A DNA stretch of 45,469 nucleotides from Proteobacteria bacterium UBA6522 (GTDB lineage: Bacteria > Pseudomonadota > Gammaproteobacteria > Steroidobacterales > Rariloculaceae): assembly GCA_002434915.1 (NCBI GenBank), contig DJLG01000110.1:1868-47336 (forward strand). Reading direction: 5' to 3'. This document shows positions 12,037-45,418 of the stretch, in pieces (within the stretch, counting starts at the first letter, position 1; each line of letters begins with the position of its first letter). The notes under the pieces were generated by a model. The model made no database searches, was not told the origin of the DNA, and saw nothing but the letters and a program-made list of their open reading frames with translations. The position numbers were made by a program, and so were the translations under genes.

Positions 12037-12134
12037 AATCTGTTCCTTCAAACGGGATTTAGCGCCTCACCAGTAGGCCAACAATAGCATATCTCTAGTA
12101 TATAAGGCGTAGCTTCTTAACAATTTTTCGCCTC

Positions 12135-15104: not shown

Positions 15105-15515
15105 ATGCATCATAAATTTCGCTTAGTTGGTTTGGTGGGTGCTATGTTGGGTTTTCTTTTAGCGGCAACTCCAATAACTGCGCATCATGCAATCCAGGCT
15201 CAGTTTGATCAGGATAGGCTTGCTACTATCACTGGTGTGATGAGACGTGTGATGTGGATAAACCCACATGTGCGTTGGTTTTTAGATGTTGAGGATGAAA
15301 ATGGTGATGTAACCTCCTGGAATATCTCTGGGTCAGGACCTGGCGCGTTTCGTCGTGTAGGTATAAGTGGCCGCGATGTGTTCGTAACAGGAGAGACCTA
15401 CACTGCTACGATCGCTTTAGCAAAGGATGGGTCAGATTTTGGGTATATTGTCTCATTTATTCTTCCCGATGGCAGGAAGATTGATTTATGGCATCAATAC
15501 CAGTCCGAGGGTTAA
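15105..15515 (+). CDS. Small exported protein, 'S-type' paralog 3
   Basis: The signal peptide ends ITA|HH, followed by AIQAQFD, WINPH and DVEDENGDVTSWNISG. Confidence 0.75.
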   Translation: MHHKFRLVGLVGAMLGFLLAATPITAHHAIQAQFDQDRLATITGVMRRVMWINPHVRWFLDVEDENGDVTSWNISGSGPGAFRRVGISGRDVFVTGETYTATIALAKDGSDFGYIVSFILPDGRKIDLWHQYQSEG

Positions 15516-15580
15516 GAATAATCCAATGTGGATGACCGTTAACTAGAATTTAATAACTGGGATATTGAGATCCATAAGAA

Positions 15581-16552
15581 ATGAAAAATAGAACTATAAC
15601 CATGTCTTTTTTGCGTTACAGCTTAATGATCTTTAGTGCACTTGGTGTTACCACTTCTTTTGTAGCTTGTACATCTGGCCAAGATTCTGCCTCCTCCTCT
15701 GATATTGCTGTAAGTGACCAAGAACAAATGTCTGAAGTTGATGCTTCATCGACGCCCCGAACTGCCAATGGCAGGCCTGATTTAAATGGCCGATGGGGTA
15801 GTAGTGGTGGTGGAGGTAGTGTTATGGCAATTGAGCCTGACGGTACTGAATACAACTTTGATACATTTGCTGATTATCAGGCAGCTGTTAGTGAAGGTAG
15901 TGTGAGCCTTTCGGCTAGTATTATTGGGCGTAGACCTAACTATCGACATGGTAATAATGTTTATGGTGAGCGAGATGATGGGATGACTAGACGTTATTTC
16001 GCAAATCCACCTCTCTATAAAGGGGAGTTCTGGAATCGAATTGAATACTTGGATATCAATGGAAATATGGAGGATATGACTTTTATCTGTATGCCAGCTG
16101 GCGTACCGCGCATGGGACCACCAATTCGCATCTTACAGTCTGAATCAGATGTCGTTTTTCTTTATCAGCAACGTAATACTTGGCGTGTTATACCAACTGA
16201 TGGGCGTGATCATGATCCGTTGAATTCTCAAGACCAAACCTTCATGGGGGATTCTGTCGGACGTTGGGAAGGAGATACCCTTATTGTTGATGTTGTAGGC
16301 TTCAATGACCTTACTTGGCTTGGGTGGCCTGGTTGGTATCATACTAATGAAATGCGTGTTGAGGAACGCTTTACTCGTTTAGATGACACGCTTCTTTATG
16401 AGGTTACGGTGCATGATCCTGAAGTTTTAATTGAGCCATGGGAAATGGATCCGCGAGTTTTGAATCTAAACCCCAGTACAGCTACATACCTTGAGGACCC
16501 GCCTTGCTTAGATTTTGATTCTGCACATATGGTGACGAGGGAGCGTGGTTAA
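15581..16552 (+). CDS. Exported lipoprotein of unknown function, 'L-type' paralog 2
   Basis: There is a lipobox (FVACTS). Family motifs are GRPDLNGRWG, FICMPAGVPRM, GRWEGDTLIVDVVGFND, HDPEVLIEPW and PPCLDF. Confidence 0.7.
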   Translation: MKNRTITMSFLRYSLMIFSALGVTTSFVACTSGQDSASSSDIAVSDQEQMSEVDASSTPRTANGRPDLNGRWGSSGGGGSVMAIEPDGTEYNFDTFADYQAAVSEGSVSLSASIIGRRPNYRHGNNVYGERDDGMTRRYFANPPLYKGEFWNRIEYLDINGNMEDMTFICMPAGVPRMGPPIRILQSESDVVFLYQQRNTWRVIPTDGRDHDPLNSQDQTFMGDSVGRWEGDTLIVDVVGFNDLTWLGWPGWYHTNEMRVEERFTRLDDTLLYEVTVHDPEVLIEPWEMDPRVLNLNPSTATYLEDPPCLDFDSAHMVTRERG

Positions 16553-18358: not shown

Positions 18359-19429
18359 TTGCAAGTACTACTAGGTAATAAGGCTAAGAGAGCAGTTTGG
18401 TCAAGCATTATATTGTTTTTCTTTTTGCCAATAAGTCTTCAGGCTCATCACTCTAGAGCAGAATTTTCTGGAGGGGATTTTCGAGAAATTGAGGGAGAAG
18501 TTGTTCGTGTGTCATGGAGAAACCCTCATGTTACTTTCAATATTAGAACAGTTTCATCAGATGGTTCTGAAGAAATGTGGGAGCTTGAGGCTGGGGATGT
18601 TGCAACTCTAGCTAGGCGTGGTTTGGACAACGGTTACATTAATGTAGGTGATATGATTACAGTGGCGGGACCAATATCGACCCGGCGCGATAACTTTTTG
18701 GCTATTGCCCATGCTTTATTAAGTAATGGTGTTGAGATGATTTTTGGAAACCGTGAACCACGATGGTCGGATCAATATATGGGTGGTGGAAGTGCCACAG
18801 TTTCTGCAAGCGAAGAGATAGAAGCTGATCTAGAAGATATTTTCCGGGTTTGGATTCGAATGGGCCCGACCCCTTACGAGGTAATTGAGCAGCCACCGCT
18901 CACTTCTGAGGCAAGGGCTATTTGGCAGAATTATGATTTTTTCCATGATGATCCTGTACTTAATTGCAATTTGCCTGGTATGCCGCGTGTCATAACTATG
19001 GCTGGTTCTCGGCCTATAGAATTTGAAAAGCATGGCAACGATATCTTGTTGCATTCAGAAAACTTTAACCTGACTAGGGTTATTCATATGGAAGAAGATG
19101 AATTGGATGGCGACATAGAATCCACACCATTAGGATATTCTCGGGGGCACTGGAATGGAGATACTTTAATTATTACTACCACGCATATTAGTTGGCCATT
19201 ATTTGAGTTGCCCCCCTTGTATGGTATTCCTCAAAGCGAGGAAATGAAGATTATTGAGCAATTTACCCTTATAGATAATGAGTTAGTGTATGACTTTTGG
19301 GCAAATGATCCTGTGAATTTCACTCAGCCCATAGAAGAGCAGAGATACTTCGTTTGGCGGTGGGATCCGGAAGTGGAAATTAGAGCTCATGAGTGCGAGA
19401 TTACTTTAAGACCAGGTTCTGAGGAGTGA
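18359..19429 (+). CDS. Natural fusion of an S-type domain (N-terminal) and an L-type domain (C-terminal)
   Basis: The TTG start follows GGTGGAG. The signal peptide ends LQA|HH, followed by WRNPH (S motifs). Next come DPVLNCNLPGMPRV, GHWNGDTLIITT, NDPVNFTQP and AHECE (L motifs). Confidence 0.75.
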   Translation: MQVLLGNKAKRAVWSSIILFFFLPISLQAHHSRAEFSGGDFREIEGEVVRVSWRNPHVTFNIRTVSSDGSEEMWELEAGDVATLARRGLDNGYINVGDMITVAGPISTRRDNFLAIAHALLSNGVEMIFGNREPRWSDQYMGGGSATVSASEEIEADLEDIFRVWIRMGPTPYEVIEQPPLTSEARAIWQNYDFFHDDPVLNCNLPGMPRVITMAGSRPIEFEKHGNDILLHSENFNLTRVIHMEEDELDGDIESTPLGYSRGHWNGDTLIITTTHISWPLFELPPLYGIPQSEEMKIIEQFTLIDNELVYDFWANDPVNFTQPIEEQRYFVWRWDPEVEIRAHECEITLRPGSEE

Positions 19430-22855: not shown

Positions 22856-23686
22856 TTATGATGGACGATCACCCTTAATAGTAACTCGTCTACCTTTACG
22901 TTCTTCTGGCCAGTAGTCCCAAACTGCCCTATGCATAGCGCAGCGGTTATCCCAAAAGGCTACATCATTTATTTCCCAGCGAAAACGAATCTGAAAGTCT
23001 ATTTTTTCACAATGATCATATAAATAATCGAGTATCGCTCGACTTTCTGTTTCGTTGAGTTCATTAATACGTGTGGTGAAGGTTCGGTTGACATAAATAG
23101 ATTTTTTGCCAGTTTCAGGGTGAGTTCTTATCACTGGATGTATCGCATGTGGGTAAAGTTTTCCATCATCGTCTACGCCTCGATCAGAATACCGACCGCG
23201 GTAAACATGTTCCGATTCATGGAGCGCAGTCAAATTAGATAGAGTCTCTTTAAACGGTTGTGATAAAGCATCATATGCCGCATAACTATTAGCAAATAAA
23301 GTATCACCACCTGATTCAGGCAAAATATGTATTTGTAACATTGTTCCAAGAGGGGGTTCTTCGTCACAAGAAACGTCCGAATGCCAGAACTCACCATTAG
23401 CAACCTTAGAGTTTTTTTGTACGTGAATTTCAAAAATTTCTGGATGACCTGTCATCTGAGGTGCAGCTGGATGCGCATGTAAGTCACCAAATAGCTTGCC
23501 AATATTGATTTGAGTTTCAGCAGCCATTTCTGTTTGATCTTTAAAAAAAAGAACTTGAAATTTTAGAAATGCTTTTCGAATTGCTTTATATGTTGTGGAA
23601 TCAATGCCATTAGCTAGATTAATCCCCCTGACTTCGGCGCCAAGCGCCGGAGAAAATGGTTTAATTTGAATCTGTTCTACTGACAT
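22856..23686 (-). CDS. TauD/TfdA-family Fe(II)/2-oxoglutarate dioxygenase
   Basis: Motifs present: WHSDVSCDEEPPLGTMLQ, GGDTLFAN and WDNRCAMHRAV. Confidence 0.85.
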   Translation of the reverse strand: MSVEQIQIKPFSPALGAEVRGINLANGIDSTTYKAIRKAFLKFQVLFFKDQTEMAAETQINIGKLFGDLHAHPAAPQMTGHPEIFEIHVQKNSKVANGEFWHSDVSCDEEPPLGTMLQIHILPESGGDTLFANSYAAYDALSQPFKETLSNLTALHESEHVYRGRYSDRGVDDDGKLYPHAIHPVIRTHPETGKKSIYVNRTFTTRINELNETESRAILDYLYDHCEKIDFQIRFRWEINDVAFWDNRCAMHRAVWDYWPEERKGRRVTIKGDRPS

Positions 23687-26265: not shown

Positions 26266-27312
26266 ATGCCACAAACAGGGAGTAGGGCCTTCGAGCTCGC
26301 AGAGCAAGGACTTTTACCCGATATGGTTATTCGGTTAGGGATACGTCGACTATTGAAAGCAAGGCTGATTGAGATAGGAGAGCAAGACTGCGAAAGTATG
26401 ATCTTTGATCAGCAACGCTTCATAGAGATGATGAATGCTAGTGAAATTGCGCCAGTACCTCATTTGGCCAATGAGCAGCATTATGAAGTGCCAGCTGAGT
26501 TTTTTAAATTAGTCCTTGGAGGACGTTTGAAATATAGCTGTGGATATTGGCCTAAAGATGAGATGACATTGGAAGAAGCGGAATCTGCCGCACTGAAGGT
26601 AACAGCGGAGCGAGCACTTTTAAAAAATGGCCAGACAATTTTAGATCTTGGTTGTGGTTGGGGTTCTTTTAGCTTGTGGGCAGCAGAGAATTATCCGGAC
26701 AGTTCCATTACTGCGGTATCTAATTCCAGTGCTCAGCGGGTTGCAATTGAGGCTGAGATAGAACGACGTAATCTCAAAAATTTAACTGTTCTTACACAGG
26801 ATATGAATGAGTTTGAACCAGTGACTAAGTTTGATCGAATTCTCTCAATAGAAATGTTTGAGCATATGAGAAATTACAGATTATTTTTTAATCGTATTTC
26901 TAAATGGTTAAATCCTGAAGGACGATTTTTTATGCATATCTTTTGTCATCGATCTACTGCATATGAGTTTGTTGATAGTGGTCCAAGTGACTGGATGACT
27001 AGACACTTTTTTTCAGGAGGGATAATGCCAAGCGATGATTTGCCCCTTAGGTTTCAAGAGGACCTTACTTTATGTGGAAAGTGGCGTTGGGATGGTAATC
27101 ATTATAAAAAAACAGCAAATGCTTGGTTGCAAAATATGGACTCTCAGCAAAGTGAAGTTATGCCTGTCATGTGTTCAACATATGGTGAAAAATTGTCAAG
27201 CAAGTGGTGGATGCGTTGGAGAATATTTTTTATGGCTTGCTCTGAATTGTTCGGTTATGAAAAGGGGCAGCAATGGTGGGTAGGCCACTATTTATTTAAA
27301 CGCGCTAATTGA
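26266..27312 (+). CDS. Cyclopropane-fatty-acyl-phospholipid-synthase-family SAM methyltransferase (paralog 1)
   Basis: It has the SAM motif ILDLGCGWGSF and a CMAS-like N-terminus (HYEVPAEFFKLVLGGRLKYSCGYW). Confidence 0.85.
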   Translation: MPQTGSRAFELAEQGLLPDMVIRLGIRRLLKARLIEIGEQDCESMIFDQQRFIEMMNASEIAPVPHLANEQHYEVPAEFFKLVLGGRLKYSCGYWPKDEMTLEEAESAALKVTAERALLKNGQTILDLGCGWGSFSLWAAENYPDSSITAVSNSSAQRVAIEAEIERRNLKNLTVLTQDMNEFEPVTKFDRILSIEMFEHMRNYRLFFNRISKWLNPEGRFFMHIFCHRSTAYEFVDSGPSDWMTRHFFSGGIMPSDDLPLRFQEDLTLCGKWRWDGNHYKKTANAWLQNMDSQQSEVMPVMCSTYGEKLSSKWWMRWRIFFMACSELFGYEKGQQWWVGHYLFKRAN

Positions 27313-27357
27313 TGCTGATTACTGCTACGACTAATAGGCAAAAAATATATTTTTCAA

Positions 27358-27900
27358 ATGCGTTTTTATCTTAATCTTGTTGCTTTTCAGATAGGTTGGT
27401 TTGCATGTGTTTTTGGTGCGGCACATTCCATTCCTGTATTAGGGCCTATGGTGGTATTAGTAGTGATTGCGTTGCATTTGTTTTTATCAAAAAGGCCATA
27501 TAGAGAGTTAAGTCTCATAGGTATAGCAGGATTAATAGGTCTTTCATGGGATAGTTTTCTTGTAATAGCCGGTCTTGTAGCCTATCCGTCAGGTATGATT
27601 ATTGATAGTTTGGCTCCGTATTGGATAATCGCAATGTGGATGCTATTTGCTACTACACTTAATGTTTGTCTGCGATGGTTAAGAAAAAAGTACTTACTGA
27701 GTCTAGTTCTTGGTGCATTTATGGGCCCATTAACCTATTATTCTGGCGCAAAAATTGGAGGAATAAGTCTTTTAAATCAGATGGATAGCTTAATTTCGAT
27801 AGGGCTAGGATGGGCAGTGATATTACCCCTGCTAAGTGAGCTTTCTAGAAGATTAGATGGTTCCGGTATTCCTGAGGGCTTTAATCACCCCAATGTTTGA
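27358..27900 (+). CDS. DUF2878-like small membrane protein
   Basis: The N-terminus (LVAFQIGWFACVFGAA), about 5 TM segments, and its position in the conserved CFA/DUF1365 cluster support the call. Confidence 0.6.
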   Translation: MRFYLNLVAFQIGWFACVFGAAHSIPVLGPMVVLVVIALHLFLSKRPYRELSLIGIAGLIGLSWDSFLVIAGLVAYPSGMIIDSLAPYWIIAMWMLFATTLNVCLRWLRKKYLLSLVLGAFMGPLTYYSGAKIGGISLLNQMDSLISIGLGWAVILPLLSELSRRLDGSGIPEGFNHPNV

Positions 27901-28663
27901 TTCTTACCTTTTGGCATTAGCAATTGTGATGAGCTTTGCCGTATTGGCATGGGGTGTGAGCCTACGGTTACGAGATGTCAGTATTGTAGATAGCATTTGG
28001 TCGTTAATGATAGCGGCCACATCAATAGCTTATTTTGCTCTAACCCCTCAAGTAGAGCCTAGAGGTTATATCGTTTTATTTCTTGTATGGATTTGGGGTA
28101 TTCGTTTATCTGTTTACCTCACCTGGAGAAACTGGGGCCTAGAGGAGGATTCCCGCTATAAAGAAATTCGAAAGAATAATGAGCCTAACTTTGAGGTAAA
28201 GAGTCTCTATATTATTTTTGGTTTACAGGCTTTTGCAGCATCAATTGTTTCTTTATCACTACTTGCTGGAATTGCTAGTCGGTCAGCGCTCGGATGGCTT
28301 GATTTGTTAGGACTCTTACTATGGGTTATTGGTTTTCTTTTTGAAAGTATTAGTGATCATCAACTCAGTCAGTTTCAATCTGATACAAACAATAAAAATC
28401 AGGTTCTTGATAAAGGGTTATGGAAGTACACTCGTCATCCAAACTACTTTGGAGATTTTTGTATTTGGTGGGGATTTTATTTGTTTGCTCTAAGCGCAGA
28501 AAGTTGGTGGGCTATTATTTCTCCATTACTTATGAGCTTTTTATTGTTAAGATTTTCTGGAGTAGCTGTTCTTGAAAAAACTATCAAGGCGCGTCGTCCC
28601 GCATATGTAGAGTATGTGAATTCTACAAATACATTTTTCCCTGGTCCTAGAAAAAAACCATAA
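27893..28663 (+). CDS. DUF1295 membrane protein (steroid 5-alpha-reductase/ICMT-like fold)
   Basis: It contains LWKYTRHPNYFGDFCIWWGFYL. The ATG at 27893 overlaps the previous stop by 8 nt. Confidence 0.75.
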   Translation: MFDSYLLALAIVMSFAVLAWGVSLRLRDVSIVDSIWSLMIAATSIAYFALTPQVEPRGYIVLFLVWIWGIRLSVYLTWRNWGLEEDSRYKEIRKNNEPNFEVKSLYIIFGLQAFAASIVSLSLLAGIASRSALGWLDLLGLLLWVIGFLFESISDHQLSQFQSDTNNKNQVLDKGLWKYTRHPNYFGDFCIWWGFYLFALSAESWWAIISPLLMSFLLLRFSGVAVLEKTIKARRPAYVEYVNSTNTFFPGPRKKP

Positions 28664-28670
28664 ACTTGAT

Positions 28671-29912
28671 ATGAAAATTGCAATAATCGGAGCTGGAGTT
28701 TCCGGTAATACTGTTGCCTATCGACTGCATGAAAAGCATGACATAACAATATTTGAGGCTGAAGATTATATTGGTGGGCATGTAAATACTATTGATGTAG
28801 TTGAAGATGAGTCTGTAATCTCAGTTGATACTGGTTTTATCGTTTTTAACGATCGTACTTATCCCCAATTTACTTCGATTCTTAAAGACCTGGCCGTACC
28901 TTCTCAGGCGAGTGAGATGAGTTTTAGTGTGAGTTGTGAAAGTTCAGGGCTTGAATATAACGGCGCTAATTTTAATAAACTTTTTTGCCAGAGAAGTAAT
29001 TTTTTTCGATGGTCCTTTTATCAGATGATTTATGACATATTACGTTTTAATCATTTTGCGCCACGCGATTTAGTAGATGCAGATGCTAGTACGTTGCTCT
29101 GTGATTATTTAGATAAAAACGATTACTCTCCGCAATTCATAAACCAATATCTATTGCCGATGTGTGCTGCTATATGGTCTGCGGATCCTATGGCCATTGA
29201 GAAAGCTCCACTAATTTTTCTAGTTCGTTTTATGGAAAATCATGGCTTGTTAAGTATTAATAACCGTCCCCAATGGGGAGTAATAAAAGGAGGGTCAAAA
29301 AACTATATTAATCAAATGGCTAGTGCATATTCTTCTAAGATTAGATTGTCTACTCATGTCCAATGGGTTAAGCGATATCCAGGTTTTATAGAGATAAAAG
29401 CATCTGGAAGTGAGGTGCAACGGTTTGATGAGGTATTTTTAGCCTGTCACAGTGATCAAGCTTTACAACTATTAGCTGACCCTTCTCCTCTTGAAAAAGA
29501 GATTTTAGGAGCTATTAATTATCAATCTAATGAAGCGATTCTTCATACAGATGATTTGATTTTGCCAAGACGTAAATTAGCATGGGCAGCTTGGAACTAT
29601 TACATTCCAAAAGAACATGATGGTTCTGCATCTGTTACATACAATATGAATATTCTTCAAGGTTTAAAGTCTAAAAACATCTATTGTGTGACACTGAATG
29701 ATTCTGAAAGAATTCGACCGGATAAGATTATCAAAAGAATTATTTACCATCATCCAGTATTTACACAGGCAAGCATGGCAGCCCAGAAACGTCATAAAGA
29801 GATAAGCGGGGTTAATAGAACCTATTACTGTGGGGCTTATTGGGGAAATGGTTTTCATGAGGATGGTGTTGTAAGTGCTCTATCTGCCATAGAAGGTTTC
29901 GAGGAAAAATAA
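28671..29912 (+). CDS. FAD-dependent oxidoreductase (amine-oxidase/phytoene-desaturase-like)
   Basis: It has the N-terminal dinucleotide motif KIAIIGAGVSGN and the C-terminal pattern YYCGAYWGNGFHEDGV. Confidence 0.85.
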   Translation: MKIAIIGAGVSGNTVAYRLHEKHDITIFEAEDYIGGHVNTIDVVEDESVISVDTGFIVFNDRTYPQFTSILKDLAVPSQASEMSFSVSCESSGLEYNGANFNKLFCQRSNFFRWSFYQMIYDILRFNHFAPRDLVDADASTLLCDYLDKNDYSPQFINQYLLPMCAAIWSADPMAIEKAPLIFLVRFMENHGLLSINNRPQWGVIKGGSKNYINQMASAYSSKIRLSTHVQWVKRYPGFIEIKASGSEVQRFDEVFLACHSDQALQLLADPSPLEKEILGAINYQSNEAILHTDDLILPRRKLAWAAWNYYIPKEHDGSASVTYNMNILQGLKSKNIYCVTLNDSERIRPDKIIKRIIYHHPVFTQASMAAQKRHKEISGVNRTYYCGAYWGNGFHEDGVVSALSAIEGFEEK

Positions 29913-29916
29913 GGGC

Positions 29917-30687
29917 ATGGAAAGTTGTATTTTTGAAGGTCATATTAAGCACCATCGCTACTCGCCTGTTAGTCATGAATTTAAGTATCGCTTGTTCATG
30001 ATGTACATTGATTTAAACGAATTAGAGGACATATTTTGTGGACGATGGCTATGGTCATCTCATGGACTAGCACTTGCACAGTTTAGACGTAGTGATCACC
30101 TTGGCGATCCAGAACAGCCTTTAGACGAATCTGTTCGTGACCTAGTGGAGAAGAAAACTGGTCATCGACCTAGTGGGCCAATCCGATTATTAACACAGTT
30201 AAGTTATCTTGGTTATGGGTTCAGTCCAGTATGCTTTTACTATTGTTTTGATTCTTTAGGTAGGGATGTGGAGACGATTATTACCGAGGTAAATAATACG
30301 CCATGGGGAGAAAAGTATTGTTATGTATTATCAGATCCCACTAAAACTCAGAAAAATAATTTAAAATATTTCGAGCTTAGTAAAGATTTTCATGTTTCAC
30401 CTTTCATGGCGATGGATCTGGATTATGAGTGGAAGTTTTCTGATCCGTCGGAACGTATTTTTATACATATGAAGAATATAAAAAACGGAGATGCATTTTT
30501 TGAGGCTATATTGAGTCTCGGTAGATCTGAAATAACTGGACGATCATTAGCACGTTTGCTCATAGTTTATCCCCTAATTACGATAAAATTAGTTATAGGC
30601 ATTTATTGGCAAGCATTGCGTTTATGGTTGAAGAGATGCCCAGTTCATGATCACCCTAATAAGAGTAAAGTTATAACGGCTAAGTAA
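29917..30687 (+). CDS. DUF1365 protein
   Basis: The N-terminus (IFEGHIKHHRYSPVSHEFKYRLFMMYIDLNEL) is typical of DUF1365. It sits between the FAD oxidoreductase and a CFA synthase. Confidence 0.75.
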   Translation: MESCIFEGHIKHHRYSPVSHEFKYRLFMMYIDLNELEDIFCGRWLWSSHGLALAQFRRSDHLGDPEQPLDESVRDLVEKKTGHRPSGPIRLLTQLSYLGYGFSPVCFYYCFDSLGRDVETIITEVNNTPWGEKYCYVLSDPTKTQKNNLKYFELSKDFHVSPFMAMDLDYEWKFSDPSERIFIHMKNIKNGDAFFEAILSLGRSEITGRSLARLLIVYPLITIKLVIGIYWQALRLWLKRCPVHDHPNKSKVITAK

Positions 30688-31976
30688 TGAAAAATTCAAT
30701 ATCTCATAGTTCTAATGATGGTTCTTTTGGCAAAAGTAAACTACCATTTTTTTCGGGGTTTTCTCGTAGGCTTGTGCATCATCGTCTCGGGAGCTTAACG
30801 ACGGATCGGTTAATAATTACTGAGGGAGATAGATCCTGGGAATTTGGTAGTTCAGATAACAATATTGAAAATATAGCAAAGATTTTTGTACATGATTCCC
30901 GTTGCTATAGAGATGTTGCGTTTGGTGGAACTGTTGGTGCTGGTGAGGCCTATATGAAAGGCTATTGGAGCACAGATGATTTAACTAACGTGGTTCGTGT
31001 TTTGCTAAGAAACAGAAAGTTATTAAATAATATGGAGACAGGATTAGCTCGTTTTTCTGAGCCTGCCAACAAAATTTTCCATTGGTTGAATCATAATAGT
31101 AAATCGGGTAGCAGAAAAAATATTTCTGCTCATTATGATTTGGGGAATGATTTTTTCCGTCTCTGGCTTGATGATTCACTAATGTATTCTTCAGCTATTT
31201 TTGAAACTCCTCGTATGACGTTAGAAGAAGCTTCTCTAACAAAAATGAGAAGGATTTGTGAAAAACTGGAATTATCCTCTTCTGATAAAGTGCTTGAAAT
31301 TGGTGCTGGATGGGGAGGTTTAGCGGTTTATGCGGCAAAAAAATACGGGTGCCAGGTAACTACTACTACCATTTCTCAAGAGCAATATAGCTTTGCATTA
31401 AATCGAGTAAAAGAAGAAGGGCTAGAGGATTATGTTACTGTTTTAAAAAAAGATTATAGGGATTTAGAAGGTCAGTTTGATAAGCTAGTTTCTGTTGAGA
31501 TGTTAGAGGCTATAGGGCATGAATTTATAGATACTTATTTTGAAAAATGTAATAGCCTTCTAAAATCAGATGGCATGATGTTGCTTCAGACCATTACTAT
31601 TGCTCATTCAGAATATGAGCGCGCTAAACAGTCTGTTGACTTTATCCAGAGATATATATTTCCTGGTGGATGTTTATCTTCAGTTCAAGTTTTAAAAAAT
31701 TCAGTAACTCGTGTTCCTAACTTGATTCTTCATCATCTTGAGGAAATCGGTCTTGATTATGCAATGACAATAAGGCATTGGAGGCAACGAATGTTTGAAA
31801 AAATTTCAGATATTCGATCTCTTGGTTATTCAGAAGAATTTATTAGAATGTGGGAGTTCTATTTTTGTTATTGTGAGGGTGGTTTTGTTGAGCGCGCAAT
31901 TGGGGATGTGCAACTTCTTTTGGTTAAGCCTGAGAGCAAGCCAAATATAAATTTTGCTGTTTCAGCATCAGTTTAA
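30687..31976 (+). CDS. Cyclopropane-fatty-acyl-phospholipid synthase family methyltransferase (paralog 2)
   Basis: It contains HYDLGNDFFRLWLD, the SAM motif VLEIGAGWGG and VEMLEAIGHE. Its start overlaps the previous stop by 1 nt. Confidence 0.85.
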   Translation: MKNSISHSSNDGSFGKSKLPFFSGFSRRLVHHRLGSLTTDRLIITEGDRSWEFGSSDNNIENIAKIFVHDSRCYRDVAFGGTVGAGEAYMKGYWSTDDLTNVVRVLLRNRKLLNNMETGLARFSEPANKIFHWLNHNSKSGSRKNISAHYDLGNDFFRLWLDDSLMYSSAIFETPRMTLEEASLTKMRRICEKLELSSSDKVLEIGAGWGGLAVYAAKKYGCQVTTTTISQEQYSFALNRVKEEGLEDYVTVLKKDYRDLEGQFDKLVSVEMLEAIGHEFIDTYFEKCNSLLKSDGMMLLQTITIAHSEYERAKQSVDFIQRYIFPGGCLSSVQVLKNSVTRVPNLILHHLEEIGLDYAMTIRHWRQRMFEKISDIRSLGYSEEFIRMWEFYFCYCEGGFVERAIGDVQLLLVKPESKPNINFAVSASV

Positions 31977-36984: not shown

Positions 36985-37046
36985 CAAGTAGATTTAAATT
37001 GTGCAATCTACATTAAAAAATATTTATAGCATTTTTGGAGAAAAAA

Positions 37047-37556
37047 ATGATTGGAATCAAGGAAGAATTTCCAGACTTTTTATTAACTGGAATAGATAAA
37101 AATAATAATTTTATTGATGTATCACGCTCCCACTTAGATGGCTGGTCTGTGATTTATTTTTATCCCAAAGATTTTACTTTTATTTGTCCTACTGAAATAG
37201 AACAGATGGATAGGCTAGTTGATGAGGGTGTGAATGTTTTTGGTATTAGTGGGGACAATGAATATTGCAAATTAGCTTGGAAAGAAAGTAATGCCCTAAT
37301 TTCATCAATACGACATAGTTTGCTGGCAGATTCAGGAATTAGCCTTGCATCACAATTAGGCGTAGTTGATGAAGATGAGGGCGTATGTTTAAGGGCAACA
37401 TTTATTCTTAATGAAAATCATGATGTTATGCATGTTTCTGTTAATGAATTAGACACAGGAAGAAATGTTAATGAAGTCATTAGAACGTTAAGAGCTTTGC
37501 GAGCAGGTGGTTTAACAGGTTGTGAATGGAATCCCGGAGATGAATTTGTTGGATAA
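37047..37556 (+). CDS. Peroxiredoxin (AhpC/TSA family, 2-Cys-like)
   Basis: It has the peroxidatic motif FYPKDFTFICPTE and a C-terminal GCEW. The ATG at 37047 follows TGGAG. Confidence 0.85.
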   Translation: MIGIKEEFPDFLLTGIDKNNNFIDVSRSHLDGWSVIYFYPKDFTFICPTEIEQMDRLVDEGVNVFGISGDNEYCKLAWKESNALISSIRHSLLADSGISLASQLGVVDEDEGVCLRATFILNENHDVMHVSVNELDTGRNVNEVIRTLRALRAGGLTGCEWNPGDEFVG

Positions 37557-37615: not shown

Positions 37616-39379
37616 TTAATACTCAAGTGGCATGTTCTGTGCTGGATTAATATTGCCATGAAAACCACCTTGATCTCGGACTACTTGTGACACACCTTCT
37701 TCGTTGTAATGAACCCAGACTAGACCATGAGCATCTCCATTTTGGGGCATATCTATAACCTTAGTGAGTTCCCTGGTTTCTGAATCATAAACAAGTATTC
37801 GACCTTCACCATTACTTGTTGCCCACATTTCTTTGCCATTTGGAGAGAGCAATACGTGATCCATTTCATAAGCTGCAAATAGTGTTGCTAGAAACTCACC
37901 AGTCTCCGTGTCAAGAACTGAAATTGTTCTTCCAAATTCACCCATGTTTTCACCTTTAGAGGCAACCCAGATCTCCGACTCATCAGCTGAAAGGGTTATT
38001 CCGAATGGGCCGCCTCCGGTTCCTCTTGTCCAAACGATTTCTCCTGTTTCAATATTTAACTTTGTGAGTCCAGAAGATCCTGACATTGCGATGTAAATAA
38101 ATTTATTACCAGAGTCAATAACAGCCCACGTTCCTCGATAACCTGGCAGTGGGTATTCTTTTATAACTTCCCAATTATCAGGATCAATTTTTGCTACCCA
38201 GAACGGTCTCATAGCCACCAGTGCACCTCGACGTAAATTACCTGCACCTCGTCCGCCTGTGGCACGACCTGGGCCATAGCCTGCTGGTTCCATTAATGCG
38301 TAGATATGGTTGTGATCTGTCCATACCGTGTAGACCATTCCGCCTAGATCTATATCCTTTATTCCACTTATTACATGGTCTGTTTCTGGATCGTAAAGCA
38401 TTAGACCTAGCCCATCAGGATCTCGAGCAAAGACATCTAATAATAGGTATTTTTCCTGGAAAATCTGTCCATGATGTAAACGTCCTCCAATAGTTATCTG
38501 TTTTACCGGTTGCAGAGTTAAGGCATCTACTTTCAGCATGGTTTGTGATCCACCAGGATCAGGGTTTCCATCAGATCCTGGCTCTCTTGGCCCCACTATG
38601 TAAACGAACTTGCCATCCGGTGACATTGTAGTGCCATGAACTGCATTTCTAAGATTGACTGGTAGCTGGTAGCTAGCAATGATTTCTTTTGTGATTGCAT
38701 CACCAACCACGACTTGGTTTGATTCCGGTGCTACATAACCTTCATGTAAAACTGCGGGCTTACTATTTGTTCCAATATTTTCATAAAAATATGTATGATT
38801 TTTTTGGGGTTTGAATTTTTGGGTTCCAGGATTAAAGGTTGCCACAATACGAGAATCATAGTGGCTTTCTAAATTTCCTTCATTTGCTCGTTGCTCCCAA
38901 CTGGTTATAACTGAGCCAAAAGATTCGATAGCTTCAACAGCTACATCACGCTCTGTTTTACTAAAAACTAGCTCTTGAGCTTGAGTGGTTTTTGCTTGTA
39001 CTAGTGCTTCGCGCCATTGTGCAGGCATTGTATCTTCAAGTGGTAATTCAGCCATAGAGCGCAAGTAGATAGATAGAGCAATCAAATCATCATCATTAAG
39101 GTTTAATTCGGTCATGATGACTGACATTGTTGGATTGCTTTCAAGCTGTTCGAAAATGTCTGTTGGCGTTGGACCAAATTGTAAAGTAGGGCCAACTCTT
39201 CCCTGGGCTGTTTCACCATGGCAGACCCAGCAGCCTACAGGTTCAGCGTGATATAGCATGCGGCCCCGTTCGACTAAATCATCCATAGTGTCCTGAGAGG
39301 AAGCTATATTAAATATAAGTTCAAGCAGAAAAAAAACACTCAAGAATAAAGTGGATGTTATATATACGGGAAACCTCAT
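37616..39379 (-). CDS. Exported cytochrome c domain fused to a YVTN/WD-like beta-propeller
   Basis: An N-terminal signal/anchor is present, and there is a single CXXCH (GCWVCHGE). Repeated propeller-like segments follow: SPDGKFVYIVG, SGNKFIYIAMSG, SADESEIWVASKG, SPNGKEMWATSNG. Confidence 0.7.
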   Translation of the reverse strand: MRFPVYITSTLFLSVFFLLELIFNIASSQDTMDDLVERGRMLYHAEPVGCWVCHGETAQGRVGPTLQFGPTPTDIFEQLESNPTMSVIMTELNLNDDDLIALSIYLRSMAELPLEDTMPAQWREALVQAKTTQAQELVFSKTERDVAVEAIESFGSVITSWEQRANEGNLESHYDSRIVATFNPGTQKFKPQKNHTYFYENIGTNSKPAVLHEGYVAPESNQVVVGDAITKEIIASYQLPVNLRNAVHGTTMSPDGKFVYIVGPREPGSDGNPDPGGSQTMLKVDALTLQPVKQITIGGRLHHGQIFQEKYLLLDVFARDPDGLGLMLYDPETDHVISGIKDIDLGGMVYTVWTDHNHIYALMEPAGYGPGRATGGRGAGNLRRGALVAMRPFWVAKIDPDNWEVIKEYPLPGYRGTWAVIDSGNKFIYIAMSGSSGLTKLNIETGEIVWTRGTGGGPFGITLSADESEIWVASKGENMGEFGRTISVLDTETGEFLATLFAAYEMDHVLLSPNGKEMWATSNGEGRILVYDSETRELTKVIDMPQNGDAHGLVWVHYNEEGVSQVVRDQGGFHGNINPAQNMPLEY

Positions 39380-39539
39380 AAACCGCCATCCTTTTTCACA
39401 AATATTTATCTAATCTTAACGCGTTACTTCTTTATAATCAGTCATTGTCGAGGTCTAACTAGCCTATTATTATTAATAGCTAACTGTTTAAATTTATTAT
39501 AAATAGGCCTCAAAGTTTTTTATATCTGACAATATTATT

Positions 39540-40604
39540 TTGAAAAGCACAGTGACCTTGGATTTTACCCTTGCATCTAAGCAGTATGAAATTAACTCTG
39601 AAGAGGAGGCTCAGGATTACTTTCATGCTAGAGGACTAACCGATGGATTACCTATAGTTCCACCAACTAGTGAAAAAGTCATAGCATGTTTGCATCAATC
39701 GGGTATGGTTCCGACTCATGTATTAGGCGTAGAGCCGGTACGTGGACGTGTAATTACCGCTGAGAAGACCGCAATCAATGCGGTACTTGCTGGATGCCAA
39801 CCACTCCATTTCCCAGTCGTAGCAGCAGCAGTTGAAGCGATGTGTCATCCCGAGTTTCTTCTTCATGGGGCTACCTGTAGCACTGGTGGATGCGCTATCT
39901 TCATGGTCGTAAATGGCCCCATAGTTCAGGAGTTAGGGATGGGGGCAACATTTAATGCTTTAGCAAATAGTGACCGAGCCTCTGCTGTTATTGGGCGTTC
40001 AATTCGTTTAATTCTTAATAATATTTTAGATGTAAAGCCTGGTGGCCTTGACCGATCAACATTGGGTCATCCAGGGAAATTTAGTTATTGTTTGGCGGAA
40101 GATGAGAATGGAACTGATTGGATTCCTCTTGCACAGCAGCGTGGTGCTCCAACAGATATATCAACTGTTACAGTTTTTGCAGCTGGATCTCCTAGGCAAA
40201 TAATGAATGAATGGACGACAGTACCAGAGGAGATTTTAGAAACATTTGCTGCTGAGATTAAAGCAAATATGTTGCACTATTCAGTATGGGGTGGAAATTA
40301 TGTGATTGTTTTGCCAAAACAGTTGCGTAGTAGGCTTGAGGAGGCAAACTGGAGTAAGTCGGATGTACAGAGGTTTATTTTTGAACATGCCCGCGTAAAA
40401 AAACATGATTGGATTAAGGTAGGAAAAAAATCTCTTATTACGGACAATAAAGATAAAGAATTTTCTGCTCTGACTAATCCAGAAGATTTGCTTGTTATTG
40501 CAGCTGGTGGTCCTGCCGGAGGATTTGGTGCTGTTATACCACCTTGGTTTGGTCATAAGTCCCGGGCCGTAACTATGGGTATTGGCGTTTGTTTTGATTG
40601 TTAA
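39540..40604 (+). CDS. Hypothetical 354-aa protein upstream of the UGSC selenoprotein gene; C-terminus ends in CFDC
   Basis: It is a long ORF with coding-like composition. I recognise no family. The TTG start lacks a clear SD, so the start is uncertain. Confidence 0.55.
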   Translation: MKSTVTLDFTLASKQYEINSEEEAQDYFHARGLTDGLPIVPPTSEKVIACLHQSGMVPTHVLGVEPVRGRVITAEKTAINAVLAGCQPLHFPVVAAAVEAMCHPEFLLHGATCSTGGCAIFMVVNGPIVQELGMGATFNALANSDRASAVIGRSIRLILNNILDVKPGGLDRSTLGHPGKFSYCLAEDENGTDWIPLAQQRGAPTDISTVTVFAAGSPRQIMNEWTTVPEEILETFAAEIKANMLHYSVWGGNYVIVLPKQLRSRLEEANWSKSDVQRFIFEHARVKKHDWIKVGKKSLITDNKDKEFSALTNPEDLLVIAAGGPAGGFGAVIPPWFGHKSRAVTMGIGVCFDC

Positions 40605-40624
40605 TTAACGGTGAATTTTTGAAA

Positions 40625-41143
40625 ATGTTTATCTTAGACCCTACTGCTGAAGTTGACCTGAAGCCCATCTCCTCGGCCCCTCGTCTTAAGTCCCCAGATA
40701 AAAAAATCATTGGTCTTCTTTCGAATGGCAAAGCAGCCGTATCCCCATTCTTTAATTATCTAGAAAAAATGCTAGGAAAGAACTGGAATGCTAAAACCAT
40801 TCTTCGCTATACAAAGATTAATTATAGTGCTCCAGCTGATCCTGACCTGATTCGGGAACTAAGTAGATGCCATATGATTGTGACTGGTATCGGCGACTGA
40901 GGAAGTTGTTCATCATGCAGTTTGCATGACGCTATTACTTTAGAAAAGGTTGGTATTCCAACAGTAGCTATTATGACTTCGGAATTTGTGGATTCAGCAA
41001 AGATAATGGCTAAGTATTGTGGGATTTCTGATTATGCTTTTGCAATAGTAGATCATCCAATAAGTAGTGCTAGTGATGGTGAATTAGAAGCAAAGGCTAG
41101 GGAAGTTTTAGTTCAAGCTAAAGATCTATTATTCCAACCGTAG
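40625..41143 (+). CDS. Probable UGSC-family selenoprotein (in-frame TGA at 40898-40900 read as Sec)
   Basis: Track ORFs 40598..40900 and 40922..41143 share a frame and are separated only by the TGA. Read-through gives ...MIVTGIGD-U-GSCSSCSLHDAITLEKVGIPTV... The downstream piece has no ATG or SD. A hairpin follows the TGA. An alternative start is the TTG at 40598. Confidence 0.65.
40913..40929 (+). promoter_or_regulatory. Candidate bacterial SECIS hairpin
   Basis: The sequence is t-catgca-gtt-tgcatg-a, giving a 6-7 bp perfect stem. The G/U-containing apical loop lies about 20 nt 3' of the TGA. A possible lower stem pairs aagt (40903-06) with actt (40937-40). Confidence 0.35.
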
Positions 41144-41209
41144 CTTTTTATAATTACTTGTTTTTTAGTAAGAATACAATATATATAAAGTGCTATATAT
41201 TTCATCTTG

Positions 41210-42502
41210 TTAGCCCGTGAATTGTCTATCAGGTCTAAGTCGAGCCGCTAAAATTGCACCTATTAGCAGTAAAAGTATTGAACCAATAAATGGCATTACC
41301 CAGCTGCCAGTAAGATCAACAAAATAACCAAAGCTAGCGGGCGACACAAGCCCTGCAAGACCGAACCCAAAGTTCATCATTCCACTAGCTGAGCCTGCAT
41401 AACGGGGTGCTATATCCATTGGAACAGCCCATATCGGAGCCACAATAAGTTCGGCAAAAAAGAAAGCTAACGAAAGACATATTGCTGAGACTGTTAGGTC
41501 AGGGATCAATATAACAGGAATTAAAAAAAGAGCTGCACCTGAAAAACCTAGAACAAGAACTGAGCGTCTGGCAATTAAAAGACTGCCTGTGCGCCGCAAT
41601 ATTGAGTCGCTTAATATTCCTCCTAAAGTATCCCCAATAACGCCAGCAAATAGTACTCCAGCTGAAAATAAAGCTGTATCTCTCAGATTGAGTCCATAGT
41701 TTTCAAAAAAGAAAGTTGGAATCCAGCTCAAAAATAACCATAGGGTCCAGCCATAGCAAAAGTCCACCATCGTTACTGGTAAAATATGGCGTGCTAATCG
41801 TAGATAAGGAACTTTACGTTTAGTTTTTTCCTTTACTGCAGGTTTTGGAAGCCTCGCTAGATCTCCAGCACTAATAGATTTATGGGTCTTTGGGTCATCA
41901 CGAAAATAGAAAAGCCATGCAAGTGACCATAGAAAAGTAATAGATCCAAGTAATATAAAAGAGGTTCGCCATGAAGCGAATATGAGAATACCTGCTACAA
42001 GCGGGGGAGTTATCGCATTTCCAATTCGTGCACATGAATGTGTGATGCCTTGTGCAAATCCCCATTTTTCCGCAGGTGTCCAGGTGGACATTGCTCGAGT
42101 TGCAGTTGGAAAAGCTGGACCTTCACCAAAACCTAAGGCAATCCGAGCGGCAATCAGCGATATGAAACCACCTGTTAGTCCTGTAAGTACTGTTGAAATT
42201 GCTGCGATTACACAACAGGTTGCAAGCACCAAACGTGCACCAAAACGATCTGCAAGCCATCCACCAAAGAGTTGAAAAAAAGCATAGGGAATTGAAAAGG
42301 CTGAAAAAACCATACCCATTTGTGTATTGCTAAGCCCAAGATCGGCTCGAATTAGGGGAGCTAATATTCCGATATTAACTCGATCAATATAAAGGAGTAA
42401 GTATAGGAGACAAAGAAGAATGAGAACGTTTCGAGGCGTCTTTGTCGGTAGGGGCGATTGGGAATTCTTCCCAGTATTCATGGTAGCAAACGGTTTATTC
42501 AT
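41210..42502 (-). CDS. MFS transporter, anion:cation symporter (ACS) type
   Basis: It contains LLYIDRVNIGILAPLIRADLGLSNTQMGMVFSAFSIPYAFFQLFGGWLADRFGAR. An ATGA overlap joins it to the upstream TauD-like gene. Confidence 0.85.
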   Translation of the reverse strand: MNKPFATMNTGKNSQSPLPTKTPRNVLILLCLLYLLLYIDRVNIGILAPLIRADLGLSNTQMGMVFSAFSIPYAFFQLFGGWLADRFGARLVLATCCVIAAISTVLTGLTGGFISLIAARIALGFGEGPAFPTATRAMSTWTPAEKWGFAQGITHSCARIGNAITPPLVAGILIFASWRTSFILLGSITFLWSLAWLFYFRDDPKTHKSISAGDLARLPKPAVKEKTKRKVPYLRLARHILPVTMVDFCYGWTLWLFLSWIPTFFFENYGLNLRDTALFSAGVLFAGVIGDTLGGILSDSILRRTGSLLIARRSVLVLGFSGAALFLIPVILIPDLTVSAICLSLAFFFAELIVAPIWAVPMDIAPRYAGSASGMMNFGFGLAGLVSPASFGYFVDLTGSWVMPFIGSILLLLIGAILAARLRPDRQFTG

Positions 42503-43359
42503 GCAGAAGGTCGAGTCTGACCTTTTATTTGTGTGCGATGTAAAACCCGCCTAGTTTCTGGATTAAAAGAATCACGTTTGTGCATGGTGCAGCGGTTATC
42601 CCAAAGGACCACATCCCCAACCATCCACTTATGCCCCCAGGCTATTTCTTCATGAGTTGCATAAGACCAGATTTCATCTAGTAACTTATCGGATTCATCT
42701 AGCGTCAATCCTTCGATATAAGCATTACGTCTGCGACCAAGATAAAGGACTGGCCGATTCGTTTCCGGATGACTACAAATCAGTGGGTGATAAACTCCTT
42801 CTGAGGTTACAGGGTCATCTATTGCTTCTACACCTTCACGAAGGTAACCGCCGCTATTGTAAGTTCCATCATGTTTTAGTCTTAATCCATTAATTCGTGT
42901 TTGAAGAGAGTTTGGAAGCAACTCAAGGGCCTTATACATATTACAGAAATATGTTTTACCCCCTACAGGAGGTATTTCAAGTGCATATACCATACTAGCT
43001 TTGGGAGGTTCTTCTAGATAGGACATATCGGTATGCCAAACAGCCTCCCCAGCACCAAGACTTCCGATTGGCTGACCATTTTCAATAACATTTGAGATAA
43101 CATAGATCTCTGGATAGCCTTTAACAAAGCGTCTTCCTGTTTCCTGTACAGGAGCAAAGTCTAACGTTCCTAGCCGTTTGCTAAAGTTTATTAAATCTTG
43201 GTCTGTGAGCTCTTGGCCTCTCAGAAGAATAACGCAGTTATCAAGCCATGCGAGATGAATAGCTTCAAACTCAGAATCGCTTATATTGGCAAGGTTTATG
43301 CCACATATCTCAGCGCCAAGCGGTCCATTTATTGGTGTAATTTTAAGATTTGTTGCCAT
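42499..43359 (-). CDS. TauD/TfdA-family Fe(II)/2-oxoglutarate dioxygenase (second copy)
   Basis: Motifs present: WHTDMSYLEEPPKASMVYALEIP, GGKTYFCNM and WDNRCTMHKRD. Confidence 0.85.
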   Translation of the reverse strand: MATNLKITPINGPLGAEICGINLANISDSEFEAIHLAWLDNCVILLRGQELTDQDLINFSKRLGTLDFAPVQETGRRFVKGYPEIYVISNVIENGQPIGSLGAGEAVWHTDMSYLEEPPKASMVYALEIPPVGGKTYFCNMYKALELLPNSLQTRINGLRLKHDGTYNSGGYLREGVEAIDDPVTSEGVYHPLICSHPETNRPVLYLGRRRNAYIEGLTLDESDKLLDEIWSYATHEEIAWGHKWMVGDVVLWDNRCTMHKRDSFNPETRRVLHRTQIKGQTRPSA

Positions 43360-43474: not shown

Positions 43475-43867
43475 TTAATTTGGTGAATTAGAAAATAGTG
43501 GTCTGCCATCGGGAAGCGTTGCTGCAGAAAGACTTGCGGTAGGAGTATTATTACGAGCTTGCCAACCTTGAATTTGTAGAATCGTTCCTACTGGTAGGTC
43601 TCCAGGACGCCAACCGAGGCGAATCAAATTATTAGCTGCTCGGGTTTCCAATGCCCAGTTAATAATTTCCCCATTGGAATTTTCAACATCAACATAGATC
43701 CATGCATGAGGATTTGCCCATTTCATTTCAGTCACAGTTCCCGTAAAACTAATAGGCTTATCTCTATCAAACTCAGCGGCAAACGCATGATGAGAAAACG
43801 CGTTATTAGTAAAACTAGTCAGAGAAAAGGTAAGAAGCAAGGTTGTTGTCTTAAAAAAACTAATCAT
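43475..43867 (-). CDS. Small exported protein, 'S-type' paralog 5
   Basis: The signal peptide ends AFS|HH, followed by AFAAEFD, WANPH and DVENSNGEIINWALE. It starts 6 nt after the L-L gene stop. Confidence 0.75.
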   Translation of the reverse strand: MISFFKTTTLLLTFSLTSFTNNAFSHHAFAAEFDRDKPISFTGTVTEMKWANPHAWIYVDVENSNGEIINWALETRAANNLIRLGWRPGDLPVGTILQIQGWQARNNTPTASLSAATLPDGRPLFSNSPN

Positions 43868-43873
43868 TTTCTT

Positions 43874-45418
43874 TTACTCAATATTTTGATTTTGACGATA
43901 CTCATCCTGCACATCCTTTAAATGTTGAAGGTCTGCATTGTCTTCTAGGCAAGCCACTTCCAGTAGCTCTTCATCTTCTTGGTTAAACGGCATTTCTATA
44001 GTCCATGGGCGTGTATATGGAATTGGGTCAGATACGGTAGCTCGATAGATAATTTGGTTTTCATCTACTGGCGTAAATGTTTCCACGACAGTCTGCATAT
44101 GACTAACTACATCACCTACTTCATTAAGCCATGATTTTCCATTAAAGTTTTTTGATTCAACAATGAGCGTATCTTCTTCCCAATAACCGATAGAGTCACC
44201 TTGCCATAGGCGTATTGTATCCGGTAGAGAATGTTCGCCATTTAAAGCAATTCTTCGCCATGACATGCGTTCATGTAGAACAACTATATAGCCAGGGGGT
44301 TGTAGTATAAAAAATGGTGCTGGAACATAGTGTGAGCGCGGAACACCTGCTACAAAACAGTGTGCGGTAGGATCATCATATCCTCTATGTGGTAACTGAC
44401 GGTCTATTCTTTCGGATCTAGCCCATGTCTGATAGGGCAGAATCCCATCTATAGGATCAATGACTTGTCCTCTGCTCGGTGGGAGGAGGATCTCTCTCTC
44501 ATGTTCTTCTAATCCGTAATTTGCACCACCCGCATCAGCCATATAGTAACCCCCGATATTAGGTGTGCCATCTGAGAGCCGAGAAATCTCTTCAGTTACT
44601 GTTGGGAGCGGGATATTTTGACCAGCATTAGGGTCAAATGGTTCATTATTTGGAGGAATTAAAGCTGGATACCAGGTATTTTCATCTCTCTCAAAAGCAC
44701 CATTTTCCTCTTCTTTTTCTGCTTGGCACTGGTATTCAAGGATGCCATTCATGTGTTTTTGACGTTGTAGCTCTAATTGAATAGTCCAAGGGCGTGTAAA
44801 TACATTCTGATCTTCAATAGTCGCTTCATACTCGATAGTGTCTTTGTCGATCAGTCGATAACGTTCAACAACATGGATTTCATTACTATGAAAGTTTCCT
44901 GCTGCATCGAGCCATGTCTTATCGTTTTGATCTATAACTTCAACAACTAGAACATCTCCTTCCCAATGACCACGTGAGTTTCCCATCCAAGACTCAATTC
45001 CAGCATAGAGAGGGGGAGACCCATTTGTATAAATTAATCTATAGACTTGTTGCCACTCAAAAGTAATTGCAATGTGGTTAGTGGTTTGGAATATTTGGAA
45101 TGGAGATTCCATTGCCATAATTCTTGGCACACCTGGCAAGTAACAATTATTAAGTGGATCCATGGAAGCACGATTTTCAAAATTTTGAATCTTCTGCTCA
45201 GCTGCCCATGGTTGATAGGGGATTGTTCCACCATCAACGACACTTATGCCAGCTGGCATATCATGTCTAGCAACATGATCTTCAAGGTCAAAAGACGCGC
45301 GGTTAACTGGACGCCATATTCCTTGCAAATCAGGTTTTCCATCTGCATCACGAGGCAAGTTCTGCCCTGATACTGTCCCAGTAACTAATACTAGAAAAAT
45401 AAATAAATATGGTGACAC
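43874..45418 (-). CDS. Exported protein with two tandem L-type domains (L4a and L4b)
   Basis: The GTG start follows AGGA, and a signal peptide is present. The motif set occurs twice. First: GKPDLQGIW / NCYLPGVPRI / GHWEGDVLVVEV / TRPWTI / YQCQAE. Second: GTPNIGGYY / HCFVAGVPRS / GYWEEDTLIVES / TRPWTI / VACLED. Confidence 0.75.
   Translation of the reverse strand: MSPYLFIFLVLVTGTVSGQNLPRDADGKPDLQGIWRPVNRASFDLEDHVARHDMPAGISVVDGGTIPYQPWAAEQKIQNFENRASMDPLNNCYLPGVPRIMAMESPFQIFQTTNHIAITFEWQQVYRLIYTNGSPPLYAGIESWMGNSRGHWEGDVLVVEVIDQNDKTWLDAAGNFHSNEIHVVERYRLIDKDTIEYEATIEDQNVFTRPWTIQLELQRQKHMNGILEYQCQAEKEEENGAFERDENTWYPALIPPNNEPFDPNAGQNIPLPTVTEEISRLSDGTPNIGGYYMADAGGANYGLEEHEREILLPPSRGQVIDPIDGILPYQTWARSERIDRQLPHRGYDDPTAHCFVAGVPRSHYVPAPFFILQPPGYIVVLHERMSWRRIALNGEHSLPDTIRLWQGDSIGYWEEDTLIVESKNFNGKSWLNEVGDVVSHMQTVVETFTPVDENQIIYRATVSDPIPYTRPWTIEMPFNQEDEELLEVACLEDNADLQHLKDVQDEYRQNQNIE

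Follow-up and report, generated by a model that had tools for sequence, protein, structure and literature searches.

Does the TGA that interrupts a small gene of Proteobacteria bacterium UBA6522 (Gammaproteobacteria; Steroidobacterales; Rariloculaceae) encode selenocysteine (Sec), and with what might the resulting protein work? The gene lies in a stretch of 45,469 nucleotides (nt) of contig DJLG01000110.1 (assembly GCA_002434915.1, positions 1,868 to 47,336, forward strand), the whole of which was analysed and is hereafter called the window, with positions counted from its first letter. A preliminary description, made from the letters alone, had read two open reading frames (ORFs) at 40598-40900 and 40922-41143 as the halves of one selenoprotein of about 172 amino acids (aa). 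The two are indeed in the same frame, and the TGA at 40898-40900 is the sole interruption between them. Our results indicate that this TGA almost certainly encodes selenocysteine in a protein of the UGSC family. As a whole, the data are best explained, with high probability, by 40625-41143 being one UGSC selenoprotein gene whose product works with the protein encoded upstream.

The interrupted UGSC gene

The likely start of the gene is the ATG at 40625, which lies 20 nt past the TAA of the upstream gene and has the sequence GGTGA 10 nt before it. Joined across the TGA, the product consists of 91 aa, Sec and a further 80 aa (172 in all) and reads ...CHMIVTGIGD-U-GSCSSCSLHDAITLEK... around the Sec, with the motif GIGD-U-GSCSSCSLHD. 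In profile scans, for which U was replaced by C, this protein matched PF24696 (UGSC) over profile positions 2-170 of 172 with 159.9 bits against a cut-off of 25 (E = 8.8e-47), and NF041046 ('UGSC family (seleno)protein') over positions 3-146 of 147 with 128.5 bits against a cut-off of 125, a narrow margin. Both cut-offs are passed, which bears out the family that the preliminary description had named.

The UGSC-containing protein is among the most abundant selenoprotein families in the GOS (Global Ocean Sampling) survey, where 255 Sec forms and 21 cysteine (Cys) forms were counted and where it is given as of unknown function, 'likely' thioredoxin (Trx)-like and, in some cases, joined to a domain that was named Unknown_1 (PMC2398784); the family is documented further in PMC13188914 and PMC9312934. 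The window protein itself shows no difference from the UGSC proteins of the Sargasso Sea and GOS surveys: it shares with them a size near 170 aa, a U-G-S-C motif that begins with Sec and a hairpin in the coding region past the UGA, and the bias of those surveys towards Sec over Cys recurs among the loci studied here. The UGSC call is therefore correct as a fresh instance of a described selenoprotein family, and its novelty as stated is low. Not given in the UGSC literature consulted are a near-constant partner neighbour, a linkage to trxB and trxA, and a predicted flavodoxin-like fold.

The case for translation through the TGA is comparative. A peptide-pattern scan in which the codon at the U position was left free collected 82 species-level loci from Alpha-, Beta- and Gammaproteobacteria, Acidobacteriota, Chloroflexota and Acidimicrobiia (Actinomycetota), and TGA occupies the Sec column in all 83 loci once the window is included. 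Genes 94%, 72% and 39% identical to that of the window carry the same in-frame TGA in three metagenome-assembled genomes, and the protein sequence flanking the TGA is conserved on both sides. Cys-aligned homologues, which the preliminary description had proposed to look for, were found among more distant relatives (the Cys-type members): these are single polypeptides with Cys at the U column. In an alignment of 47 sequences, D, C/U, G, S, C and S of the motif (D-U-G-S-C-S, residues 91-96 of 172 in the window protein) are nearly invariant. The ratio of nonsynonymous to synonymous substitution rates (dN/dS) 3' of the TGA is 0.15 against the 94%-identical gene (L001) and 0.16 against the 72%-identical one (L002), with 0.21 and 0.12, respectively, on the 5' side; the low values past the TGA indicate that the downstream part is translated in this frame.

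The same data bear on the possibility that the gene is a nonsense-mutated pseudogene, or that the TGA is a sequencing error in a Cys (TGY) gene. One-base variants do exist at this codon in metagenome copies of Sec-type UGSC, namely TGT (Cys) in L083 (466-468) and CGA (Arg) in L084 (6280-6282), each with an intact hairpin of the kind described below; these are either recent Sec-to-Cys and Sec-to-Arg changes or sequencing errors, both of which fit a one-base change from TGA. Mutation or error at the window codon is nevertheless very improbable, given a TGA in 83 of 83 independent species-level loci, the strong constraint past it, and a pattern search of 185,579 species genomes that returned 0 matches to the Sec-type motif with a Cys codon.

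Hardly better placed is a reading as two separate genes, one for a protein of 91-100 aa that ends at the TGA and one for a 73-aa protein that starts at the TTG at 40922. Automatic calls give exactly this result for the homologue P0003 and on a public contig that is syntenic with the window and 99% identical to it, where the calls list two genes, of 91 and 73 aa, instead of one, so that the split by gene callers foreseen in the preliminary description is found in practice. The seven codons from the TGA to the TTG (G-S-C-S-S-C-S), however, are invariant or nearly so over the 83 loci; both called halves match PF24696, in consecutive parts of that one model and not in unrelated families; and homologues do not end at GIGD, the Cys-type members running straight through as single polypeptides. 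The TTG itself supplies the Leu of the conserved motif, falls within the hairpin and, as had been remarked earlier, is preceded by no Shine-Dalgarno sequence. For annotation, the locus accordingly represents one 172-codon selenoprotein gene as opposed to the two fragments of public gene calls.

A third reading, in which TGA stands for Trp or Gly (as under genetic codes 4 or 25) or undergoes read-through that inserts no Sec, could appeal to the homologue P0007, which is translated with W at this site. It is as improbable as mutation or error: the homologues have Cys, the usual counterpart of Sec, and not Trp or Gly, a SECIS-type hairpin is conserved, TGA is the stop of 8 of the 45 long ORFs of the window, and no second credible gene with an in-frame TGA was found in its 45 kb, from which it follows that the genetic code is not altered. 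Four further pairs of same-frame ORFs split by TGA in the window were rejected because they look like off-frame noise.

A hairpin within the coding region

A perfect hairpin at 40913-40929, in the position expected of a selenocysteine insertion sequence (SECIS), had been a main point of the preliminary description, and it holds on folding: UCAUGCA and UGCAUGA form seven perfect pairs around the loop GUU, which lies 19 nt past the UGA. Weaker, lineage-specific outer pairs may extend this core over 40898-40942. The bacterial SECIS (bSECIS) model describes a loop of 3-9 nt with G within the first two positions, usually with G or U next to it, 4-16 base pairs (bp) in the upper stem, a UGA-to-loop distance of 16-37 nt and a minimum free energy of at most -7.5 kcal/mol (PMC13188914). 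The window hairpin agrees with this model on 4 of 4 counts (GUU, 7 bp, 19 nt and, for the fold of 40898-40945 that had been suggested as a check, -11.0 kcal/mol). As in SECIS elements of the Escherichia coli fdhF type, the hairpin stands in coding sequence just 3' of the UGA, has G followed by U in the loop and falls within the 16-37 nt spacing; it differs from them in a loop of three nucleotides and a core without a bulged U. The minimal E. coli SECIS is a 17-nt stem-loop about 11 nt past the UGA.

In a single sequence such a hairpin is weak evidence for Sec by itself, because one of relaxed SECIS geometry follows 138 of the 1726 TGA trinucleotides of the window (8%). The fold z-score of the window sequence alone is -1.16 against shuffles, and a scan of the window with Rfam at gathering thresholds gave no matches. 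It is across loci that the element stands out. RNAalifold predicts the same helix on the 83 sequences, and all seven core pairs are formed in 81 of 83 Sec loci as against 0 of 80 Cys-type loci; the hairpin is likewise absent from L085, a distant Cys form. Codon choice inside the hairpin is nearly fixed: Cys98 is TGC in 83 of 83 loci, whereas Cys95, earlier in the motif, is TGC in 67 and TGT in 16; Ser99 is AGT in all 83, mostly from GC-rich genomes, whereas the earlier Ser94 is AGC in 55 and AGT in 27; and the Leu codon is YTG in 81, with ATG (Met) in the remaining two. The single variable pair of the stem is G-U in 41 loci, G-C in 33 and A-U in 8, with one mismatch. The evidence goes beyond chance, because all 83 loci share the TGA and synonymous sites in the hairpin are fixed.

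The element may also leave its mark on the protein. The motif UxxCxxC is present in the window protein and at all Sec-type loci. The codon of its third Cys contributes to the SECIS stem, and most Cys-type members lack this residue (CGSCSAATVADG in 63 of 80). After GSCS the Cys-type proteins are variable (for example AATVADG) whereas the Sec-type proteins have a fixed SCSLHD, so the RNA element may account in part for the conservation of the third Cys. The locus is a clear case of a SECIS hairpin that fixes codon choice, and possibly the peptide SSCSLHD, within a coding region. For decoding, SelB carrying Sec-tRNA(Sec) would bind the 17-nt hairpin that starts 12 nt past the UGA (loop G-U-Y) and deliver Sec, a step proposed because it follows the established bacterial mechanism. 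Table 1 collects the features of the locus.

Table 1. Coordinates of the UGSC locus in the window and the grounds for each assignment
Feature	Coordinates	Strand	Grounds
Conserved partner gene of an uncharacterised family, predicted to be co-transcribed with UGSC	39540..40604	+	Adjacency, fusions
Possible Shine-Dalgarno sequence GGTGA of the UGSC gene	40610..40614	+	By eye in the sequence
UGSC-family selenoprotein gene	40625..41143	+	172 codons; Sec = codon 92; stop TAG 41141-41143
In-frame UGA, almost certainly read as selenocysteine (U92), residue 1 of the U-G-S-C redox motif	40898..40900	+	Comparative evidence
Bacterial SECIS core, 7-bp stem, loop GUU (40920-40922)	40913..40929	+	bSECIS criteria and conservation

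Partner gene, fold and a candidate two-subunit reductase

Upstream of the UGSC gene stands a gene for a protein of 354 aa (from the TTG at 39540) or 350 aa (from the GTG at 39552), for which no Pfam, NCBIfam or PDB sequence match was obtained. Its AlphaFold model has a mean predicted local distance difference test score (pLDDT) of 81.5, and the fold candidates that the PDB offered for it (class I fumarate hydratase and cyanuric acid hydrolase; best E 2e-3, template modelling (TM) score <= 0.25) were taken as no match. Pfam searches at E <= 10 returned only noise for both the UGSC and the partner family, and a PDB sequence search nothing meaningful for either. The partner is more conserved than UGSC (57-77% against 43-62% identity). 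A homologue of it is present at 65 of 85 loci and usually lies directly upstream of Sec-type UGSC; two of the remaining loci have upstream sequence too short to judge. Of 80 Cys-type loci in cultured Actinomycetota, 71 have it directly downstream of UGSC, and the pair also occurs on haloarchaeal megaplasmids. The family comprises more than 5174 clusters at 90% identity, all named 'hypothetical', and 4441 clusters at 50%.

Adjacency is accompanied by fusion. Proteins of 528-556 aa hold a full UGSC domain and a partner domain, and others of 416-452 aa start with only the post-Sec part of UGSC and continue into the partner domain, a structure consistent with Sec-type fusions that gene callers had truncated at the TGA. 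As far as the GOS paper describes its 'UGSC/Unknown_1 fusion', these proteins are consistent with it, and the partner is very probably its Unknown_1 (PMC2398784). Within the partner, Cys86 and Cys184 are invariant across the whole family, and a C-terminal C-x-D-C tail occurs only in partners of Sec-type UGSC. Six proteins of about 710-740 aa (P0253, P0255, P0259, P0276, P0282 and P0298) match the partner in two or more separate stretches, which suggests a tandem-duplicated, pseudo-dimeric form; P0253 and P0255, the two that were scanned, had no Pfam match.

For UGSC, the AlphaFold model of P0002, a 43%-identical Cys-type homologue, is of high confidence (pLDDT 93.4) and forms a sandwich of five beta-alpha units, with the U/C position in the loop that follows strand 3 and the second Cys at the first turn of the helix that comes next. 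Its best fold matches in the PDB are lumazine synthase and flavodoxin-type and receiver domains; the top 50 are all flavodoxin-like or Rossmann-like, and the query-normalised TM-score of all matches is <= 0.5. UGSC thus models as flavodoxin-like, and the Trx-like fold of the literature is not supported by the model, because no thioredoxin-fold protein appears among the top 50 matches. The product of the window gene would accordingly be a small flavodoxin-like alpha/beta protein in which, on the modelled geometry, U92 and C95 could act as a redox-active pair; we infer that they cycle between selenol/thiol and selenenylsulfide. With the upstream-encoded protein it would form a two-part enzyme, as adjacency and natural fusions suggest.

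UGSC might instead be a stand-alone thiol/selenol oxidoreductase, a thioredoxin-like antioxidant to which the upstream gene is merely a frequent neighbour. We regard this as unlikely, though far less so than the alternatives concerning the TGA. It would agree with the Trx-like fold and redox role proposed in PMC2398784, with the acidobacterial Sec-type loci at which no partner is found within 6 kb, and with a peroxiredoxin gene 2.4 kb upstream in the window. What stands against it is the beta-alpha fold of the model, together with an adjacency that is kept across phyla and domains despite reversed gene order, and the natural fusions. The partner-less loci of Acidobacteriota (L005, L006, L008-L012, L015, L016, L026, L028, L030, L038, L039, L042, L047 and L056) adjoin GNAT-like, BNR/sialidase-like and sodium:solute symporter genes, names that were assigned by eye.

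A comparison with GrdB, selenoprotein B of glycine reductase, had also been drawn in the preliminary description, and it survives in part. GrdB carries UxxCxxC (PMC13188914), but homology was not detected: the GrdB/PrdB family PF07355 gave no match to the window protein at E <= 0.01 or to any of 47 UGSC members at E <= 10. At the level of sequence, the likeness appears to be a resemblance of motif and not demonstrated homology. UGSC and GrdB/PrdB are alike in having Sec first in UxxC(xxC) and in the pairing of a Sec subunit with a second catalytic subunit, as in a multi-component reductase. They differ in that the third Cys is not family-wide in UGSC and that its partner has no similarity to any Pfam family. 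The gene content of the window suggests an aerobic heterotroph and not a Stickland fermenter.

Operons of the grd type carry trxB and trxA, and the same genes recur beside the UGSC-partner pair. On an Arthrobacter plasmid they form an operon, trxB-trxA-partner-UGSC; in Variovorax sp. SRS16 the cluster with the pair includes trxB; and trxB lies within 6 kb of the pair in five further actinobacterial genera, three of which (Microbacterium, Pimelobacter and Nonomuraea) have trxA within that distance too. Seven loci with a nearby trxB were thus observed where about 0.25 would be expected by chance among some 85, an estimate based on about 12 genes per locus and our rough figure of one trxB per genome of about 4000 genes. 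Since trxB and trxA are neighbours, the thioredoxin system is a candidate reductant: the pair may be a reductase for a small substrate that is re-reduced by this system, either directly or via the CxDC tail of the partner, a proposal that we hold tentatively and as somewhat less than an even chance. With slightly less confidence still, the two proteins could be an unrecognised thioredoxin-dependent two-subunit reductase, a functional counterpart to the glycine and proline reductases that anaerobes possess, widespread among aerobic bacteria of marine and soil habitats and among haloarchaea, with the partner as the substrate-binding catalytic subunit (Cys86 and Cys184) and UGSC as the Sec/Cys redox subunit. 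If true, an orphan selenoprotein family that ranks with the ocean's most abundant would thereby gain a function. UGSC is one of the most abundant selenoprotein families predicted from ocean metagenomes, and the partner, the fusions and the trxB/trxA linkage make the question of its function testable, because cultured carriers of Cys-type members exist (Microbacterium, Arthrobacter, Variovorax, Paracoccus and Natrinema).

Several observations weigh against the explanation of the locus as a selenoprotein gene that works with its upstream neighbour, or against parts of it. Genes for selA, selB, selD and tRNA-Sec are absent from the 45-kb window and from about 5 kb beyond its end, as read on the syntenic contig; ARAGORN found no tRNA in the window. 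Covariation in the hairpin falls short of significance, since the stem hardly varies: no pair shows a compensatory double change, and the signal does not rise above the shuffle controls. Conservation of the hairpin without covariation therefore means that the invariant peptide SSCSLHD could be a partial source of it. Partners are lacking within 6 kb at the 17 acidobacterial Sec-type loci listed above and at one Acetobacteraceae locus (L054). The structure was modelled on P0002, Cys-type and 43% identical, and not on the window protein itself. No Sec-type locus has trxB or trxA nearby; that the CxDC tail of their partners accounts for this is speculation. The other neighbours of the pair vary by lineage (transporters, short-chain dehydrogenases/reductases, acyl-CoA ligases and amidohydrolases) and do not point to a substrate.

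Neighbours of the pair and other features of the window

Clustering of the neighbourhoods showed no universal neighbour besides the partner, in a run disturbed by shadow ORFs on the antisense strand of GC-rich genomes. A phosphosulfolactate synthase gene lies near the pair at L166 (3889-4356) and L167 (4674-5462), which belong to a haloarchaeon, Natrinema, and an Arthrobacter; as a pair-linked gene it was rejected, since it did not recur at other loci. The window encodes TauD-family dioxygenases at 22856-23686 and 42499-43359, and these, together with the synthase, may hint at organosulfonate metabolism. A promoter and terminator scan of 39300-41300 gave a number of sites not above that of shuffles.

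The 45 kb contain a paralogous two-part module four times (4477-5906, 15105-16552, 18359-19429 and 43475-45418). Each copy has a small DUF6152 protein beside a protein that lacks a Pfam match and carries a domain of about 130 aa, shared between the copies at 27-39% identity. At 18359-19429 both parts make up a single ORF, at 43874-45418 the shared domain is present as an internal duplication, and a lone DUF6152 gene lies at 11653-12051. At 72-3675 the window encodes a three-subunit molybdenum hydroxylase of the CO dehydrogenase/xanthine dehydrogenase type (2Fe-2S, molybdenum cofactor and FAD subunits), and at 26266-31976 two cyclopropane-fatty-acid-synthase-like methyltransferases together with DUF2878, DUF1295, amine oxidase and DUF1365 proteins. 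Divergent from the partner-UGSC operon, the gene at 37616-39379 on the minus strand encodes a protein of 587 aa that has a weak match to cytochrome c at its N-terminus, below the Pfam cut-off, and a cytochrome-d1/beta-propeller C-terminus. The peroxiredoxin mentioned above, of the AhpC/TSA family at 37035-37556, is Cys-type.

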